A stretch of 64,000 bases of DNA from Cinqassovirus ah1 (IMGVR_UViG_2974724611_000001:12650-76649), one strand, 5' to 3'. Numbered from the stretch's first letter, positions 36,604 through 53,313 are shown. Notes: a model not told the origin generated them from the sequence alone. Numbers and translations: made by a program.

Positions 36604-36816
36604 TCACAAATGTATTCTGAATCTTTGGCGATTACTTCGCCGTTCTACTTCGAGTTTGCCGTTGGTAGCACTCATTGGGACTTCCAGCTTTTCTTTCAGA
36701 TACGCTTTAAGTTGTTCCAGTATATCTGAACTCAAACTGTTGTCAACTGATTTTTCCACAATTTTTATGCTCTTTACATTGCGTTGTTGTGTAGCCGTCA
36801 AACACAGAACGAGCAC
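36604..36816 (-). CDS. Hypothetical protein (probably shorter, GTG start near 36765)
   Basis: The track ORF overlaps the HAD gene 3' end by 74 nt. An internal GTG start would reduce the overlap to about 17 nt. Confidence 0.3.
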   Translation of the reverse strand: MLVLCLTATQQRNVKSIKIVEKSVDNSLSSDILEQLKAYLKEKLEVPMSATNGKLEVERRSNRQRFRIHL

Positions 36817-37233
36817 GATAATAGTCCTTAGCTGTGAATCCGTTCACACTATCAACGTGAATGAAATTTTGCTTTTGTGACTCCAACATGTCGTCGTCAT
36901 CGTCAACAATCACATAATTCTCACATTCTTGATGTTTGTTCAGCCACTCTTGAATCAACTCTCCGCGATTTTCACCAACAAGATCTCTTGTTTTGAAATC
37001 CTCATGTAAGCATTCGGGAGGGAATCCTGCCATAGCAAGTTGATCCTTCACCATCTGCAAATCACATCCAAGTCTCCAAGTGCTACTGTATACCACTTTC
37101 AAACCGTAGTCAACGATTAGTTGGATAAAAGCTTTACAGCTCCTATGTCTACCATTTGTCCGTATTTCAAGTAACTGCTATCGCTATGAAATACTCCGTC
37201 AACATCGAGAAACAATACACGGCATTTTTTCAT
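36743..37233 (-). pseudogene. HAD-superfamily phosphatase disrupted by a -1 frameshift
   Basis: Frame A, 37233-37117: MKKCRVLFLDVDGVFHSDSSYLKYGQMVDIGAVKLLSN, stop. This carries HAD motif I (DxDG). Frame B, 37177-36743, continues ...CKAFIQLIVDYGLKVVYSSTWRLG...YVIVDDDDDM (motifs II-IV). The frame-A ATG overlaps the upstream TGA as ATGA. Confidence 0.55.
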
Positions 37234-38477
37234 ACGTCAAGAGTCCACATCGTATCTTTCAGCCAATCTGGATACTTTCTACCGTCGCTGGTGTCAGTCT
37301 CGTCTAATGTGTTGCAATAAGCGATTTGATTTTCGATTTGAGTTCGGTATTCCTCTCCCAAAATCTTCACCAATCGCTCTATGGCAGCGTTTCTATTGTC
37401 CAGCATATACTCACAAGCGTATATACGAGAAACGATTGTACCAGCGTTCTGGCCTGCTTCCAGCATACGTTTCACGATACCTTCGAGTATGTTACCGTCA
37501 CCGCATGAAGGCTCAAAGAAAGTCGAACTGGAATCCGGATCATCTATGTCGGTATGATCCAACATCTGATTTACGAGTTCAATCGGAGTGAAAAACTCGG
37601 CAGTTTTCTTCTGACGATCTCTATCAATCTTATCGGTAAACATCCTGGTATCACCAACGACTTGCGTTTTGTGACGCTTACCGCCATAGTAATCTTCGAT
37701 TACTTCTGGAACCCTAGATTTGATATCAAGCATATCGAATTTTTCGAATAGCTCGTCATCTGTCCAACGCTTCGTCATGTCTACCCATGGAATTGCATGT
37801 AGCTCTCCACTATCTAGGTGAACATTCATCTTATACAGAGAAAGCATGAATCTTGCAAAGTCCGTTTTCAGATAAGCAATAAAATTCTCTGCCTCTTCTA
37901 ATGTCTTGAATGCGAAATTAGTGCCACGTTTAGGCATTTCCGTAGTTGGAATGTAGTCAACTGGGAACATGGTAAAGAAGTCTGAATTAAAGCGTTTGCC
38001 AGCTTCTGGCGGGTGTCCTCTAACACTTGCTATAGTGACGTAGTGACTCGCATCACTAACTTCACCAGAGCAGGCATGATGCGCTACAGACTGAATTGGA
38101 AATCTGTCATACAGTTTAACACACCAATCGCCAATCATATTCAGACGATTGATAGGCAGTCTAGCGTCATAGTAGCCAGACACATTAATCAGACCAGCTT
38201 TCATTGTTTTGTCAATAACGGTTATACTAAGCGGAGTCAAAAACCCGGCTTTGAAAACGGCATTACCGTCAAACAGATGAACACTTGTTGTATATGTTTT
38301 CATGTTGTCGAGTAGTTCGGCAACTCGTTTTGTTTGTCGCGTTGGCTTTCTGTTAATAAAAGGTCCAGACGGATGCACAGCGATAGTAACATCACATTTC
38401 TTTACACCTAAGTTAACAAAGTCAACGTGCAAACCAGCACTATATGGCGGGTTTGCAATCATATAATCAAAGTGCAT
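37230..38477 (-). CDS. Beta-class N6-adenine DNA methyltransferase
   Basis: 415 aa. Motif IV NPPY at the N-terminus (MIANPPYSAG), then C-terminal motif X FFTP and motif I FFEPSCGDGN. Confidence 0.7.
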   Translation of the reverse strand: MHFDYMIANPPYSAGLHVDFVNLGVKKCDVTIAVHPSGPFINRKPTRQTKRVAELLDNMKTYTTSVHLFDGNAVFKAGFLTPLSITVIDKTMKAGLINVSGYYDARLPINRLNMIGDWCVKLYDRFPIQSVAHHACSGEVSDASHYVTIASVRGHPPEAGKRFNSDFFTMFPVDYIPTTEMPKRGTNFAFKTLEEAENFIAYLKTDFARFMLSLYKMNVHLDSGELHAIPWVDMTKRWTDDELFEKFDMLDIKSRVPEVIEDYYGGKRHKTQVVGDTRMFTDKIDRDRQKKTAEFFTPIELVNQMLDHTDIDDPDSSSTFFEPSCGDGNILEGIVKRMLEAGQNAGTIVSRIYACEYMLDNRNAAIERLVKILGEEYRTQIENQIAYCNTLDETDTSDGRKYPDWLKDTMWTLDV

Positions 38478-39192: not shown

Positions 39193-39391
39193 AAATGTCA
39201 AACAGTGATGCAAGTCCTGGATGCTGTGGGAACTTCACATGTTTGGTGTTTTTGTCAATTGCCAATCCGGTTTGTTTAACAAACGCATCGAACTTTTCTT
39301 TAGAAGCAAAACGAACTTTGATCGTCCGTTTGCCACTCTTCATTTTCTCGATTACGTGTTCCGGTGCGGCATCTGGGTTAACATATGCCAT
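39191..39391 (-). CDS. Hypothetical protein
   Basis: 66-aa ORF. Confidence 0.45.
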   Translation of the reverse strand: MAYVNPDAAPEHVIEKMKSGKRTIKVRFASKEKFDAFVKQTGLAIDKNTKHVKFPQHPGLASLFDI

Positions 39392-40590
39392 TATTCTTCC
39401 TCGTCGTTAGCGTCTTGTTCGGACGCTTTGATAGATGTTAGCACCATTCCGTATTCATTGCAACCTTCCGGAATAACATTTTTCAGTTTCAGACGATTAG
39501 AACGATACGGTGCATAGTCTACCCAGTGGTGCCAGCGACCGTTCATCCACTGCAATCTGGCAACGTCTGGATGCATGTCCACAATCATTTGCGACTTAGG
39601 CAGAGTACCTTCTTTTGAATAGAAAGCTTCTGTGTTACCGCCTGCCATCGCTTGAGTAACGAGTTTACCAGTCAAGAAAGCGTTATATTGAATCGTGCAA
39701 TGACCGTCTTTCAAAACACGCAGGCTCAAATCGGTATCTTCGTTATAGCGACCTCTCCAACGATACGGGATATCATTGAGAATCAACAGAGTGCTATAAA
39801 TCCGACAGTTTTGAACGAACGGAGGCAACGACTCTTTCGGCACAGCAAAGAAGCGATAATGCGGACCAGCGATATAGACGTTTTCATAACGATCAACGTG
39901 ATCTTCCATAGCACGGAAGATCGCGCCACTGTTAACGATTGTGCGCTTGTTTCCGTCAAGACGGAAGAAGTGTTGTTGGTTATCGTCCATTACCCAGTGA
40001 CGCTTGAACCCCATTTTCATAGAGTGTTCCCAAGCAAAGTTACGAGCAGCGCCTGGACCCTTGCTTCGAGTGTTACCGAGATTATCAAATGTATCATATT
40101 CGTCAAGATATTTCTGATCAAGAATGATAACGGTCACATATTCATGATCAACGCGGCTGTTATATTCTTCGAATTGAGATTCTTCTACAACGATATAATG
40201 CTTGACTTTCATACGCACCAAACTATCGGAAGTCAATCGCTTTTCCCATCGGGATTTTGATACGATGTAAATCGGATATTTTGGCTGATTCAAATCGGTG
40301 TAATCAGATACATACCGAATCACGGAGTAATCGTCTGGACCTTTCTTCGGCCACCAAATGCTCTTTGTCTTGTCACTTAACGGCAAGTCTGCGAGCTTAG
40401 AAAACTCGGCAACATCATCGTTATTATCGAACTCGAATTCAATCTCGGCATAAGCGTCGATGATATCTTTCGGCTCATAGTGTGGCATTTGCTGCCAGTG
40501 GTCCCATGGATTATCTTCGTTGGCATATCGCTCATTGCGATAAATCAAATTGCCATCTAAGTCTCTTGTTTTTTCTACTTGTTTGCGCAT
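39391..40590 (-). CDS. Hypothetical protein, possibly a nucleotide-sugar (GT-A-like) transferase
   Basis: 399 aa with a DxD-like motif (VMDDN). The assignment is weak. Confidence 0.35.
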   Translation of the reverse strand: MRKQVEKTRDLDGNLIYRNERYANEDNPWDHWQQMPHYEPKDIIDAYAEIEFEFDNNDDVAEFSKLADLPLSDKTKSIWWPKKGPDDYSVIRYVSDYTDLNQPKYPIYIVSKSRWEKRLTSDSLVRMKVKHYIVVEESQFEEYNSRVDHEYVTVIILDQKYLDEYDTFDNLGNTRSKGPGAARNFAWEHSMKMGFKRHWVMDDNQQHFFRLDGNKRTIVNSGAIFRAMEDHVDRYENVYIAGPHYRFFAVPKESLPPFVQNCRIYSTLLILNDIPYRWRGRYNEDTDLSLRVLKDGHCTIQYNAFLTGKLVTQAMAGGNTEAFYSKEGTLPKSQMIVDMHPDVARLQWMNGRWHHWVDYAPYRSNRLKLKNVIPEGCNEYGMVLTSIKASEQDANDEEE

Positions 40591-50066: not shown

Positions 50067-50125
50067 TGTTTGTCCGATTTCGTCTTGACGTGGACATCAT
50101 ATCAGGATGTCCACGAGTGTCAATC
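50067..50125 (-). promoter_or_regulatory. Early promoter–leader cassette with a 9-bp-arm hairpin
   Basis: Minus strand: tattTGATTGACActCGTGGACATcctgatatgATGTCCACGtcaagacgaaatcggacaaacaaaATG. Confidence 0.45.
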
Positions 50126-50624
50126 AAATATCGAAAAGATTTTCTAAAGAATTTTGCTTTACTATGCCACGAGCTTCTAACAGCCAGTCTGGATATTTTC
50201 TACCCTCGCTGATATCAGTGTGATCGATTGTGTTACAATACGCAATGTTATTCAGCGCAATATCTCGGATTTCATCTGTCTGCCAATCACTGGTTAGATT
50301 GAGTTCAGCTAATAACGCTCCAATTCGAGCTATAATCGCTTCCCAGTTATCTCGCATATACTCACAAGCATAAACATCGGAAACAGCTTGGATCGCGTTG
50401 GACCGAGTTACGCCGGCTTTCTTGATCTTACGCTCGATAACTCTAACAACAAAATTACCGTCGCCAGCAGCAGGCTCAAACATGGTAACGCCGAGATTAT
50501 CCACGTCCGATACCATATCAATCATATGATCAACGATATGAATAGGAGTAAAAACTTCGTCGGTTTTCTTTTGTCGATCACGACTGATTGGACCAGTAAA
50601 CGTTCTCGCATCATCTTTTATCAT
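50124..50624 (-). CDS. N6-adenine methyltransferase C-terminal half (motif X/I module), separate ORF
   Basis: Start at MIKDD with a GGAGA SD. DRQKKTDEVFTPIHIV...MFEPAAGDGNF...VYACEYM...IAYCNT...GRKYPDWL is collinear with residues ~285-410 of the 37230-38477 methyltransferase. Confidence 0.6.
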   Translation of the reverse strand: MIKDDARTFTGPISRDRQKKTDEVFTPIHIVDHMIDMVSDVDNLGVTMFEPAAGDGNFVVRVIERKIKKAGVTRSNAIQAVSDVYACEYMRDNWEAIIARIGALLAELNLTSDWQTDEIRDIALNNIAYCNTIDHTDISEGRKYPDWLLEARGIVKQNSLENLFDI

Positions 50625-50636
50625 AATTATCTCCAA

Positions 50637-50662
50637 AGAAAAAGGGGCCGCAGCCCCTTTAT
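50637..50662 (-). terminator. Bidirectional hairpin terminator separating the two methyltransferase halves
   Basis: AAAGGGGC-UGCG-GCCCCUUUUUCUUUGGAGA. The GGAGA SD of the next ORF follows immediately. Confidence 0.5.
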
Positions 50663-50663
50663 A

Positions 50664-52301
50664 TTATCGTACCAATTCAGCAAAATCAACCGGAATTGCA
50701 TTTCTTTGTTCTTCGGTGATGCCAAAATGGTTGAACAACTTTTCATCGTCCCAAGACTGGGTGAAATCAAGCCACGGAATGGATTTCAACTCACCTCGGT
50801 GTAGATTTCCGTTCATTTTCAGCGTTGCCAGACACGAGCGAAAAAAGAGTGTTTTGGTATACGATAGGAAATTGTCTGCCTCTTCCTTGGTAGAAAATTC
50901 CCAAGATAACCAGCTATTGTTAGTCAGTCTTGAATCCGATACTACCGCATTTGTAAATCGTTTCCATAGAGTACATACGAACCATTTTCCATTTTTGTAT
51001 TCCGGTTCGTTATCTCCATTCATATACTTATGATCATCAACGCTATCCGCGAACGTGATATTATAAAATGGAAGAAGCCATTCGCCGTACATGTTTACTT
51101 GATCTATCGTTTCGGCTGTGTATTTTCCATGTTTTGCAATAACTCGAACGCGATCCAACTTCGTGAGCTTATTGATATAGGTAATTCCAACCGGAGACGA
51201 AATATCAGCAGAGAAACAATCAAATCCGATATATTCCCATGAGCAGTCATATTTGGAAACATATGTTAGAAATGCCTTGGCATCATTAGAACGACGAACT
51301 TCCTTTCTGTTTGTGATTGTGCTACACGGATGAATAGCAACAACGCGATCTGCCACTTCTAAGCCTATATTCACAAACTTGAGATCTTCCGCAAAAGGAG
51401 GATTCTGCAAGCATACATCAAATTTCATTTTTGCTCCCAGTTTATCTTTGTTTTTCATCGCATCTGTAGAAATTGCTCCAACCAACATAGAACGCATTTC
51501 TTTTGCCTTCTTATCAGAAGAAGTTGCCAGAGTAATCTTTGCTGGATTATATCCCATTTTAACTAGAGTATAAACAAACTCCACAGCTTCGACAACAAGG
51601 ACAGACGGCTGCATATACTTACAAAGATCCGCATAGGAGATCATCTTGTGTGCAGTTTCGAAGTCCATGACATAAGGCTGATTGGATTTCGCGCTATCGA
51701 CATAAGTCAAATCCTTGATCCGAACTTCGGAGTTATACCAATCGCGCAATCCGATCATTTCGATGGCATAGTGATTCATGTAAACGGGCTTTTCAATGAC
51801 GCTTACACTGGCAACCGGAGCAGGAGCGATCATGTTTTCGATAAGAAAAACGATACGCTTCATTTTTACGATGATAAAGTTGGAAACAATTTTGTTCATT
51901 TGTTCCGGACTAACATTATAGTCGAATGCGTCTTTTACCATGCTTTCAGGAACAGCTACTTCGAACCACTCGGTGCTATTCTTTTCTTTGCGGTCCACGC
52001 GAACAAAACCACAGTGTTCCATCATCAGGTGAAGTTGGTGATCGGTATTGACGGAAGAATTGGACAGTGACATTTTCCAAGCTTCCACGCAATCTTCGCT
52101 AACTGCGGTAGTCTTAGTTTGTCCTTTTACACGAAGGGAAGTATCTTCGTGTTTGGTTTCACCAACTTTGAACTTGATTTTACGCTCGGCTCGAATCATG
52201 TTCCGCACTTCGTTCGGATAGAAATATGCGTACACGTTCTTGCTTTTGTTGGTGCAGTTTTCGCCCAGGGTTTTCAGCTTAGTGATCAGTTCGTTTTTCA
52301 T
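50664..52301 (-). CDS. Methyltransferase N-terminal half (motif IV NPPF / TRD module), fused to a ~290-aa novel N-terminal domain
   Basis: Start set at MKNELITKLKTLGENC, directly behind the cassette SD GAGGAATACATCATG. Residues ~295-545 (FDVCLQNPPFAEDL...HPCSTITNRK...) align with residues 1-280 of the intact paralog. Residues 1-290 have no recognisable match. Confidence 0.6.
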   Translation of the reverse strand: MKNELITKLKTLGENCTNKSKNVYAYFYPNEVRNMIRAERKIKFKVGETKHEDTSLRVKGQTKTTAVSEDCVEAWKMSLSNSSVNTDHQLHLMMEHCGFVRVDRKEKNSTEWFEVAVPESMVKDAFDYNVSPEQMNKIVSNFIIVKMKRIVFLIENMIAPAPVASVSVIEKPVYMNHYAIEMIGLRDWYNSEVRIKDLTYVDSAKSNQPYVMDFETAHKMISYADLCKYMQPSVLVVEAVEFVYTLVKMGYNPAKITLATSSDKKAKEMRSMLVGAISTDAMKNKDKLGAKMKFDVCLQNPPFAEDLKFVNIGLEVADRVVAIHPCSTITNRKEVRRSNDAKAFLTYVSKYDCSWEYIGFDCFSADISSPVGITYINKLTKLDRVRVIAKHGKYTAETIDQVNMYGEWLLPFYNITFADSVDDHKYMNGDNEPEYKNGKWFVCTLWKRFTNAVVSDSRLTNNSWLSWEFSTKEEADNFLSYTKTLFFRSCLATLKMNGNLHRGELKSIPWLDFTQSWDDEKLFNHFGITEEQRNAIPVDFAELVR

Positions 52302-52385: not shown

Positions 52386-52408
52386 ATAAAAATCCCGACG
52401 AAGCGGGA

Positions 52409-52630
52409 TCAGTCTTTCTTGGATGCCAACATTGCTGCCATCAGCATGTCGTGGCGTTTTTGTTCTTCTTTCTCTTTGCGTAGATTCGGCAGAATCAGTA
52501 ACAGAATGATAGAGAAAAGAGGAGTCAGAAAAATGGTGATGATTAACCAACCCAGAACAGAACGCCAGCGAGAGTTTGCCAATACCAAAGTTACGATCAG
52601 AAATACAAGCCAGCCAATTGCGATTGTCAT
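52409..52630 (-). CDS. Small membrane protein
   Basis: 73 aa with two TM helices. Confidence 0.45.
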   Translation of the reverse strand: MTIAIGWLVFLIVTLVLANSRWRSVLGWLIITIFLTPLFSIILLLILPNLRKEKEEQKRHDMLMAAMLASKKD

Positions 52631-53082
52631 TTAAACACCGTTATGATAGTTGATAACGTATTCTTTCAGCTCTTGATAAAAAGCCTGATACTCGATAGCG
52701 CGAATAATGTCCTTCGGACCAACACCCTTCAAACGTCTTATATCGCTATTGTGTCGGAGATCGCTCATTTTGATGTAGACAGAACGAATGTCGGACTTGA
52801 CTCGTTGCTTGTAAGAATCCATACTTTCGCCCTTGATCTTACTCACATTTTGAACAAGTTGAACGGCTTCTAGCTCATGCCGTTAGAGATCAAGAGATCT
52901 CGTCCACCTTCGATATCTTCAATGATATCATGAGCCAACGCTGCCTGTTTAGTAGCTTCGTCAGCACACTCCGGAAGACCCTCCATAACCGCCAAGCAGT
53001 GTTCGAAATAGGGACGTCCACCTTTGTCGTTAGTTTCCGAGAAAGCAGTTGCTACCAGTGCGTACAGTTTAGCTAAAGTCAT
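52631..53082 (-). pseudogene. Small alarmone hydrolase (RelA/SpoT-type HD-domain (p)ppGpp hydrolase) split by a -1 frameshift
   Basis: ORF 53082-52870 carries the HD half: GGRPYFEHCLAVMEG...AALAHDIIEDIEGG, then a stop. ORF 52846-52631 (reading frame open from 52882) continues ...ELEAVQLVQNVSKIK...YIKMSDLRHNSDIRRL, the KLADRLHNMRT-like motif. Confidence 0.55.
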
Positions 53083-53313
53083 GTTCCTTCTCCAGTTCGT
53101 TTAACTCTTGAGTTAACATCTTATCACGGTTTGCGTGATATTCAACTTTTTTCTTTGAATGTTCAATTTCTCGGACTAAATGTTTCCTAGTATTGCTTGA
53201 ACTCGCCGTTTACAACTTCACCCATTTGACACGCAAAACCGTACATCATATATTCCTCAGTTGATTTGAAAGTGCGATCTATAATGATCGCACCGATTTG
53301 GATTACAAGCTTT

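Follow-up and report, generated by a model that had tools for sequence, protein, structure and literature searches.

Aeromonas phage Ah1, a T4-like phage of the Straboviridae (genus Cinqassovirus; NC_055733.1/MG250483.1), carries two adjacent minus-strand genes whose products correspond to the two halves of a single-chain protein of the same phage, and the question raised by this locus is why what looks like one DNA adenine methyltransferase should be encoded as two polypeptides. The stretch analysed, referred to below as the window, comprises 64 kb of Ah1 DNA, in which a position equals the record position minus 12,649. Within it, gp104 and gp103, designated here open reading frames (ORF) A and B, lie inside a run of small early-type genes, and the single-chain paralog is gp077. 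GenBank and RefSeq annotation agrees on both genes of the pair, with gp104 labelled 'hypothetical protein' and gp103 'DNA methyltransferase'. Our answer, which we regard as having an even chance of being correct, is that the two genes constitute a mobile Type IIG-like nuclease-methylase cassette in which the binding of S-adenosylmethionine (AdoMet) is supplied in trans within an A-B heteromer.

An earlier note on this DNA had described the two ORFs as the counterparts of the two halves of the paralog, and this observation is confirmed. Residues 292–530 of ORF A, including the sequence CLQNPPF, align with residues 1–251 of the paralog (31% identity, E=1e-32), and residues 5–148 of ORF B, including motifs X and I, align with residues 276–406 (49% identity, E=2e-38), so that one locus encodes a single chain and the other the same two halves as two ORFs. 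ORF B consists of motifs X (VFTPIHIV), I (FEPAAGDGNF), II (ACEY) and III (IAYCNT/CNTID), has the C-terminal sequence DGRKYPDWL, ends at the boundary between motifs III and IV, and matches phrog_21201 with E=1e-76. Its homologs at 41–54% identity, ten in number, are all short stand-alone proteins of 147–224 amino acids (aa), and the elements FTP, E-P-x-x-G-D-G-N, A-x-E (AxE..DN) and N-x-x-D are invariant over 12 ORF B-type sequences. The helix of motif X is the one that positions the asparagine of NPPY (PMC4738411). In ORF A, motif IV reads FDVCLQNPPF (NPPF at residues 300–303); N300, P301 and P302 are invariant in a 14-sequence alignment, and in a 62-sequence alignment P301 and P302 remain invariant with N300 at least 90% conserved. 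An exhaustive phmmer search found 865 relatives of ORF A at E<=1e-3; a word-indexed search returned ORF A alone.

The approximately 290 aa that precede the catalytic half, which had been taken for a novel domain without recognisable motif, comprise according to Pfam and AlphaFold a T5orf172/GIY-YIG-like domain, a helical linker and a degenerate copy of the X/I–III half, termed here the pseudo-half (Table 1). The description of ORF A as half an enzyme therefore holds for its catalytic half and target recognition domain (TRD), which match the paralog, and fails for the chain as a whole, since residues ~190–291 align with the N-terminal X/I–III region of single-chain relatives of 370–420 aa. In the AlphaFold model of ORF A (mean predicted local distance difference test score, pLDDT, 86; built from the 62-sequence alignment, with the protein of locus L005 left out), the pseudo-half forms a helix (214–224) and three strands (234–237, 256–260 and 275–278), with pLDDT 92–96, ahead of strand b4 (FDVCLQ, 294–299). 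The model predicts a gamma-ordered Rossmann fold that is complete and precedes the TRD, and its closest folds in the PDB, according to Foldseek, are M.TaqI, CamA and HsdM (E around 1e-6 over more than 320 columns for M.TaqI and CamA). Motif I of ORF A reads VVEAVEF, about four residues shorter than E-P-x-x-G-x-G-x-F, the glycine loop (G-loop) being deleted. In six A-type proteins FTP is absent, the motif II acid is not conserved and E-(A/C)-(V/I)-E-(F/I/V) replaces the G-loop. The AdoMet motifs X, I and II are missing from the ORF A chain N-terminal to motif IV and are intact only in ORF B. When the pseudo-half was compared with the ORF B profile using hhalign, only the motif X helix was aligned (probability 34%), and homology beyond that helix is deduced from the alignment to single-chain relatives together with the predicted fold.

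For the N-terminal domain, a compact alpha/beta domain with the pattern b-a-b-a-b-a-b-b is predicted by AlphaFold over residues 22–116. Residues 1–130 alone scored 22.4 bits against T5orf172 (E=1.8e-4, cut-off 20) and 19.4 bits against MUG113. Invariant in the six A-type proteins are Y24, Y28, K45, G47, R57, Q61, T62, D87, H91 and T110-E111-W112-F113, and residues Y26, G47, N108 and E111 of ORF A align with the LEM-3-type domains of the corresponding proteins in phages PKO111, PSD9 and phi-ST2. T5orf172 is listed among the nuclease domains of N6-adenine restriction-modification (R-M) systems (PMC4738411). Matches of this domain to WD40 repeats in a PDB profile search were spurious and were discarded. 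The linker is modelled as two helices (132–158 and 177–198) with a disordered stretch at 162–174.

The arrangement of an A-type gene followed by a B-type gene occurs in at least eight lineages, which include Ah1 with its relative avDM12-TAAL, metagenomic loci and cultured phages; wherever the context was fetched, a full-length ORF A homolog, N-terminus included, lies directly upstream of the closest ORF B homologs. In four distant metagenomic lineages, with 36–40% identity to Ah1 for A and 47–54% for B, the two products measure 551 and 192 aa (L005/L004, 71-nucleotide (nt) spacer), 536 and 199 aa (L006, 105-nt spacer), 544 and 202 aa (L083, 78-nt spacer) and 567 and 200 aa (L085, overlapping genes). 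Searching with ORF B by tblastn also retrieved the pair, again as overlapping genes, from Klebsiella phage PKO111 (gp114, 495 aa; gp115, 153 aa), Shigella phage PSD9 (ORF103, 499 aa; ORF102, 160 aa) and Vibrio phage phi-ST2 (0371, 552 aa; 0372, 167 aa). In these three phages the large protein is annotated as 'hypothetical protein' and the small one as 'DNA methyltransferase'. Their large proteins contain a LEM-3-type GIY-YIG domain (E=3e-15, 4e-9 and 6e-16, respectively) at the position of the T5orf172-like domain of Ah1, together with the pseudo-half (VLCVECIEVVYL, LCVIESIEVIRLL), NPPF/Y and the TRD. Between Ah1 and avDM12-TAAL, which are 97.4% identical across the region, ORF A shows 24 synonymous and 9 non-synonymous differences (ratio of non-synonymous to synonymous differences per site, pN/pS, 0.10) and ORF B 5 and 1 (pN/pS 0.05). 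These comparisons support the view that the two-gene form is conserved under purifying selection and hence functional; they contradict the suggestions that the locus is a decaying copy or that the two-chain form might be unconserved in relatives. As a separate observation, tblastn with ORF B revealed B-like modules in ten Prevotella Lak megaphage genomes (H73–H82), at 29–33% identity.

Four hidden Markov models (HMMs), for the N-terminal domain, the pseudo-half, the catalytic core and the B module, were built and run over the fetched loci. Among 86 loci with a B module, a core gene was adjacent on the same strand in 55 (within 150 nt in 45) and fused in 4, and none was seen in 27, some of which lie at contig ends and some of which are truly solitary. 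Retrieval from the core side gave 62 viral loci, with a separate B module in 41 (36 within 150 nt), a fused one in 2, none seen in 18 and no core ORF called in 1, so that the B module is present, separate or fused, in 43 of the 61 viral loci with a core (about 70%). In every case the split falls at the boundary of motifs III and IV.

The B module appears in several architectures. Besides the Ah1 type, in which a nuclease–pseudo-half–core protein is followed by B, the pseudo-half and core may be joined without the nuclease (L019, L048, L066, L087, L099), the core may stand alone with B (L020, L086, L149), the core may be the C-terminal part of a large helicase-containing protein followed by B (L033, L035, L075, L093-95), or core and B may be fused as in the paralog (L007-9, L084, L089, L101). 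A three-gene set of B, an Eco57I-family methylase and a T5orf172-helicase (L021, L028-L030, L038-L047, L050-L073, L104-L145; e.g. L062:4292-9396) is very common in viral contigs. Its B-module protein of 215–260 aa has a C-terminal extension, its methylase of ~510 aa carries motif I as D-P-x-x-K-S/T-G and a Cys-rich insert, and its third protein, of ~1000 aa, combines T5orf172 with a ResIII helicase. This set resembles a split version of the PADLOC model 'REase_MTase_IIG' and looks like a split Type ISP/IIG-like R-M system. Throughout the family, T5orf172 or GIY-YIG domains, this type of methylase and the B module recur jointly in differing fusions.

Loss of the G-loop from the large protein is associated with the presence of a B module. 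The 115 core genes fell into 53 clusters at 50% identity. Where a separate B module was present, the G-loop was retained in 8 clusters and lacking in 25, whereas clusters with an N-terminal half and no B module retained it in 8 cases and were without it in 3 (Fisher p=0.009, odds ratio 0.12). Cores devoid of any N-terminal half had B fused in 3 clusters, nearby in 3 and none in the fetched DNA in 3, and stand-alone cores that begin at motif IV co-occur with B genes (L020, L086). We take the B module as a stand-in for the lost cofactor site on the basis of this association, of the cores without an N-terminal half that accompany B, of the compact fused paralog and of the invariant motifs of ORF B.

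We accordingly propose that ORF A and ORF B belong together as a single two-gene cassette that is conserved in T4-like phages and moves horizontally among them. The predicted layout of ORF A is that of a Type IIG enzyme: a nuclease-like domain of the GIY-YIG superfamily (T5orf172-type) is joined through a helical spacer to a gamma N6-adenine methyltransferase body and a C-terminal TRD. Its NPPF catalytic loop is intact, whereas motifs X, I and II have disappeared from its own AdoMet-binding half. ORF B may then provide AdoMet binding in trans to this catalytic and recognition module as part of a heteromer, and methylation, and possibly AdoMet-dependent nuclease action, would depend on both chains. 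Homology of the parts, their conservation under purifying selection, the domain content, the predicted folds, the gene-neighbourhood statistics of the family and the presence/absence polymorphism are what the comparisons show directly; the physical association of A and B, the supply of AdoMet in trans, the nuclease activity and any restriction- or homing-like role are inferred from them. The paralog would represent the same kind of pair after loss of the dummy half and 3' fusion of an ORF B-type gene, giving a circularly permuted, beta-ordered enzyme, and the hairpin at the junction would be an ordinary T4-type intergenic terminator or RNA-stability element, through which ORF B might be expressed less than ORF A. 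No second core-only partner for ORF B was found in the 64-kb window with domain profiles, and the annotated genes of the 76.6–126.6 kb stretch of the Ah1 genome include no methyltransferase.

Other explanations of the split have to be weighed against this proposal. The two ORFs of Ah1 share a reading frame, with one TAA between them and the ORF B start codon 559 codons past that of ORF A, and other Ah1 genes appear broken (gp106/107, 54_1/54_2, 8_1/8_2), which would fit an artefact or a recent lesion, be it a sequencing error, a nonsense mutation or stop read-through to a fusion. We nevertheless consider this very improbable: avDM12-TAAL shares the ORF A stop, and the loss of 1 nt from its spacer shifts ORF B out of frame; A and B are distinct genes, with varying spacers or overlaps, in at least seven other lineages; the C-terminus of ORF A coincides with that of the family as a whole; purifying selection acts on both genes; and ORF B has a GGAG ribosome-binding site of its own. 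Stop read-through and a junction sequencing error, the latter named beforehand as grounds for abandoning the split, were rejected on the avDM12 frame, the other lineages and the pN/pS values. The junction does contain, as the earlier note had reported, a stable hairpin with a U-run after the ORF A stop and then a Shine–Dalgarno sequence. The DNA reads AAAGGGGC-TGCG-GCCCCTTT followed by TTCTTTGG, and the RNA, AAAGGGGC-UGCG-GCCCCUUU with a U-rich tail, forms in both the minimum-energy and the centroid folds. That note had suggested an attenuator-like terminator setting subunit stoichiometry; in its full form this explanation holds that the hairpin is a designed attenuator, whose partial termination fixes an excess of ORF A over ORF B and is the reason for the split. 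The canonical stem and U-run, which lie 3 nt past the stop of ORF A and 16 nt ahead of the start codon of ORF B, would agree with such a role, as would a terminator hairpin with a U-run at the L006 junction and a hairpin at the L005 junction. Against it, A and B overlap without any spacer in L085, PKO111, PSD9 and phi-ST2, the L083 spacer contains no clean hairpin, the hairpin of L005 lacks a U-run, and that of L006 has a promoter-like TTGCAT-16-TATAAT behind it, an arrangement that points to separate transcription and not to attenuation. Moreover, avDM12 tolerates a 1-nt deletion in the 3' arm that weakens the stem, terminator-like sites are common in the region (4 found in 2.9 kb vs 2.1 +/- 1.4 expected), and the 81-nt intergenic stretch does not fold significantly better than its shuffles (z=-1.7). 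The hairpin is genuine, but nothing unusual in the early region of a T4-type phage. Since it is missing or altered in L083, L085 and L005, stoichiometry control is not the reason for the split, and we judge the designed attenuator unlikely; the hairpin is lineage-specific and does not belong to a conserved design, and stoichiometry set by termination would at most be a lineage-specific refinement, with the A:B ratio of Ah1 perhaps tuned by attenuation.

A further explanation, possible though we doubt it, concerns function instead of origin: ORF A would act alone, either as a methylase with an unconventional cofactor pocket or as a methylation-dead, base-flipping recognition module steering a GIY-YIG-like nuclease, and ORF B would be an accessory with a regulatory or stimulatory role (DNMT3L- or METTL14-like), a sensor of AdoMet or a protein that uses AdoMet for some unrelated purpose. 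The complete Rossmann fold predicted for ORF A without ORF B agrees with this, and several further observations that favour it, or that concern the nuclease assignment, weigh against our proposal. The pseudo-half is modelled as strands b1–b3 packed on b4 with a short b3-to-b4 link, which poses a steric problem, since the docking site for ORF B would then already be occupied. Mean pairwise identity among A-type proteins is 0.48 in the N-terminal domain, 0.26 in the linker, 0.40 in the pseudo-half and 0.51 in the catalytic half, and the pseudo-half motif E-(A/S/C)-h-E-h is kept from Aeromonas to Klebsiella and Vibrio phages; the pseudo-half, more conserved than the linker and with a motif of its own, is thus not freely decaying and probably has its own role. 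In 8 clusters (e.g. L088, L095, L143, L148) a separate B module accompanies a large protein with an intact motif I G-loop, so the module is not merely a replacement part. A 152-aa B gene in L143/L144:1350-4171 is flanked by two complete methylase genes, each with DPAMGGG and NPPY, a layout not accounted for by simple complementation, and some B-like proteins of 130–150 aa with all cofactor motifs have no NPPY gene within 600 nt on the same strand (L015, L017/L018, L022-L027, L074). As to the nuclease, the T5orf172 assignment is borderline, full-length ORF A scoring 19 bits against a cut-off of 20, and just 2 of the 6 A-type N-termini match the profile individually. What argues against an ORF A acting alone is the association of G-loop loss with the B module, the restriction of cores without an N-terminal half to short contigs or to loci where a B module is fused to them or adjacent, the retention by ORF B of the residues that hold AdoMet beside motif IV, including the motif X helix (PMC4738411), and the joint loss of motifs X, I and II in A-type proteins in which NPP(F/Y) is invariant. 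Either the two halves exchange, or the B module binds otherwise and has a regulatory role. A bolder version of the cassette proposal, which we rate as rather doubtful, portrays a selfish phage-borne R-M or homing element: a GIY-YIG nuclease would be steered by a methyltransferase/TRD body with a dummy cofactor half that becomes AdoMet-competent only once ORF B docks or swaps in, protection versus cleavage would be set by the A:B ratio, and the pairs would be living heteromeric intermediates of the permutation of gamma-class enzymes.

The paralog bears on the class of the enzyme and on the direction of its evolution. It consists of a catalytic half and TRD (residues 1–265, with NPPY at 9–12), a DYYGG sequence, a linker and an ORF B-like module (275–415, with FTP/EPSCGDG at 295–328); it matches phrog_11371 with E=1e-203 and has fused relatives of 394–417 aa. 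Its AlphaFold model is compact (pLDDT 87, predicted template modelling score 0.87; pLDDT 94–98 in the B part). A sequential structure aligner matched it to CamA over ~210 columns only, as expected of a permuted protein. The linear order of the paralog, IV–VIII, TRD, X, I–III, is that of the beta class, as is the order of ORF A plus ORF B along the genes when the pseudo-half is ignored. The earlier designation of these enzymes as beta class is accordingly right as regards motif order and not as regards kinship: the matches, weak but consistent in Pfam, NCBIfam and PADLOC, are to N6_Mtase, Eco57I, MmeI_Mtase, HsdM, Alw26I-type enzymes, M.TaqI and CamA, all gamma-class, and none of the sequence and fold hits was to the beta-class N6_N4_Mtase. 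All members of the family, ORF A included (…IPVDFAELVR), end at a common (I/L)-P-x-Y-Y tail, which in the fused forms is internal (…DYYGG…), with a linker of ~25 aa between it and the B module. The survival of a normal C-terminus inside the fused forms indicates fusion of a gene pair and not fission; as the split layout is also the common state of the family, the recent fission that had been considered is unlikely. Together these features point to a paralog that is beta-ordered but gamma-derived and that probably arose from a fused gene pair.

Extant members of the family include canonical enzymes, canonical enzymes with an extra half, a degenerate half with an extra half, a core only with a half, and fused permuted forms, and these architectures correspond to the steps that a permutation by way of duplication and loss would be expected to pass through. 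Models of circular permutation of DNA methyltransferases were reportedly put forward by Jeltsch (1999, J Mol Evol 49:161) and Bujnicki (2002, BMC Evol Biol 2:3). The paralog agrees with them as a permuted enzyme of the M.EcoKI/TaqI-like kind, and the predicted stages are present in the family; the difference lies in the intermediates, which here would be heteromeric gene pairs that arose through partial duplication of the N-terminal half instead of tandem duplication of the whole gene. A 'circularly permuted M.EcoKI-like DAM' was noted earlier in jumbo phages (PMC7824862), and in the literature searched we found no description of a split stage of permutation or of split adenine methyltransferases in phages.

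In related genomes the cassette is either present or absent at fixed slots. In phage Aeh1, with flanks 86% identical to those of Ah1, the cassette is absent and the slot is occupied by an unrelated 243-aa gene, Aeh1p114, which was considered as a relative of ORF A and rejected, since it neither resembles ORF A nor matches any Pfam family. Within Jiaodavirus, the cassette of PKO111 is located between the genes for DNA primase and dCTPase and is present in 9–11 records, whereas in ~127 records both flanks are found at 90–95% identity and the cassette is absent; the same slot holds a MobE or 'homing endonuclease' gene in other records. Such presence and absence at a fixed slot is the behaviour of a free-standing nuclease cassette. 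The Ah1 cassette is bounded by a terminator-like hairpin upstream of ORF A and a promoter-like site right after the ORF B stop (Table 1). The latter site overlaps a 10-bp perfect inverted repeat (CGTGGACATC ... GATGTCCACG), read by eye, and a hairpin plus promoter-like arrangement is also seen upstream of ORF A. Promoter/stem-loop cassettes are said to have been proposed by Arbiol et al. in 2010 to mediate gene shuffling in T4-type phages, and the hairpins, repeat and promoter-like sites that flank our cassette resemble them. The phi-ST2 cassette (L154:846-4671) lies directly upstream of QueD- and QueC-like genes of the 7-deazaguanine pathway, another link of the cassette to DNA hypermodification loci.

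Table 1. Features of the gp104/gp103 locus, its boundaries, the paralog and neighbouring genes in the window of phage Ah1.
Feature	Position (nt)	Strand	Basis
ORF A (Ah1 gp104, 545 aa)	50664..52301	-	ATG at 52301, stop 50664-50666; translation, annotation
T5orf172 / GIY-YIG-superfamily nuclease-like domain, ORF A residues 18-120	51942..52250	-	Pfam scan, invariant residues
Helical linker, ORF A residues 121-190	51732..51941	-	AlphaFold; lowest conservation
Degenerate X/I-III half (pseudo-half), ORF A residues 191-291	51429..51731	-	Alignment to single-chain relatives, AlphaFold
Catalytic half (motif IV NPPF, then V-VIII) and C-terminal TRD, ORF A residues 292-545	50667..51428	-	Alignment to paralog
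NPPF of ORF A motif IV	51393..51404	-	
Terminator-like hairpin, 8-bp stem (5 G-C), UGCG loop, U-rich tail	50641..50660	-	Terminator scan, folding
GGAG ribosome-binding site of ORF B, 6 nt upstream of ATG	50631..50634	-	Sequence reading
ORF B (Ah1 gp103, 166 aa)	50124..50624	-	ATG at 50624, stop 50124-50126; translation, annotation
ORF B motif X, FTP	50544..50552	-	Sequence
ORF B motif I, EPAAGDGNF	50451..50477	-	Sequence
Strong sigma-70-type promoter-like site TTGACA-16-TATGAT, 11/12 matches, 3' cassette boundary	50096..50123	-	Scan
Terminator-like hairpin upstream of ORF A, 5' cassette boundary	52391..52410	-	Terminator scan
Hairpin and promoter-like arrangement upstream of ORF A	52410-52337		Partly by eye
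Single-chain paralog (Ah1 gp077, 415 aa)	37230..38477	-	ORF, alignments, phrog_11371, AlphaFold
HD-domain phosphohydrolase (gp106/gp107)	52631-53082	-	
TET-associated glycosyltransferase, 399-aa ORF	39391-40590	-	Pfam TAGT, E=9e-45
HAD domain ORF downstream of paralog	36743-37102	-	Pfam HAD_SAK_2, E=2e-14

Several neighbouring genes deserve mention. Just upstream of the cassette, a gene for an HD-domain phosphohydrolase is split into two ORFs in Ah1 by a 1-nt deletion (GAGCCTAG -> GAG-CTAG); avDM12 and Aeh1 have one 150-aa gene. Together with the other genes in two pieces in the Ah1 record (54_1/54_2 and 8_1/8_2), this reflects either indel errors in the record or real frameshifts of the phage. 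A comparison of window positions 53100-53300 with L002:5713-6915 and L003:5663-6862 showed that a gene for an ultraviolet (UV)-damage endonuclease and a small ORF, located between the HD hydrolase and the next conserved gene, are present in Aeh1 and avDM12 and not in Ah1. Near the paralog, a TET-associated glycosyltransferase gene lies two genes upstream, which suggests that a DNA hypermodification cluster (glycosylated hydroxymethyl-pyrimidine) is located there; if that cluster is real, Ah1 DNA would withstand a nuclease attacking unmodified DNA. The product of the next ORF downstream of the paralog matches the HAD domain of 'Swiss Army Knife' RNA-repair proteins.

Compared with known systems, ORF A shares with gamma-class N6-adenine methyltransferases (M.TaqI, CamA, Eco57I/N6_Mtase) the NPP(F/Y) motif IV, the order X, I–III, IV–VIII, TRD and the best fold matches, but it lacks motifs X, I and II, its intact half resides in the downstream gene, and it has a nuclease-like N-terminal fusion. 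Type IIG/IIL enzymes (MmeI, Eco57I, BpuSI) and Type ISP enzymes (LlaGI) likewise combine nuclease, helical spacer, gamma methyltransferase and TRD in one chain, and relatives in the family with a T5orf172-helicase partner match the PADLOC model mentioned above. In contrast to these systems, the putative nuclease of ORF A is of the T5orf172/GIY-YIG type and not PD-(D/E)xK or Mrr, no helicase is present, the AdoMet-binding subdomain is on a second chain so that AdoMet binding is not self-contained, and the carrier is a lytic phage. Naturally split methyltransferases such as M.AquI alpha/beta (cited in PMC5944983), or the engineered split M.HhaI and M.SssI, also distribute a catalytic fold over two polypeptides encoded by adjacent genes, and in our case too the adjacent A and B products jointly hold one full motif set and both are conserved. 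Here, by contrast, the divided enzyme is an amino-methyltransferase, the break falls between motifs III and IV at the AdoMet-binding b1/b4 switch point, and the large chain retains a dummy copy of the missing half. Finally, the free-standing GIY-YIG homing endonucleases of T4-like phages (Seg; PMC2988022, PMC2330249) resemble the cassette in joining an N-terminal GIY-YIG-family domain to a DNA-recognition module. Further likenesses are the location between conserved genes, the presence/absence polymorphism and the slot shared with MobE in Jiaodavirus. The recognition module here is a methyltransferase/TRD body, however, and not a NUMOD or helix-turn-helix module, and a second gene always accompanies it.

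The cassette is widespread in T4-like phages yet undescribed. Cultured members of this phage group that infect Aeromonas, Klebsiella, Shigella and Vibrio, phage-therapy candidates among them, carry it under the label 'hypothetical protein'. If our proposal is true, it would be a natural case of an amino-methyltransferase divided between motifs III and IV, at the cofactor-binding switch point, unlike the M.AquI-type split and of a kind not described in the literature searched. The route from gamma to beta order has reportedly been debated since 1999, mostly on theoretical grounds, and this family would show every stage of one concrete route, with real, expressible phage genes as its intermediates. 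A methyltransferase whose cofactor site is provided in trans would also offer a natural template for split, conditionally active methylation tools. For the phages themselves, a nuclease-methylase of this kind could affect the breakdown of host DNA, the exclusion of co-infecting phages, the evasion of host restriction and the inheritance of markers in crosses.

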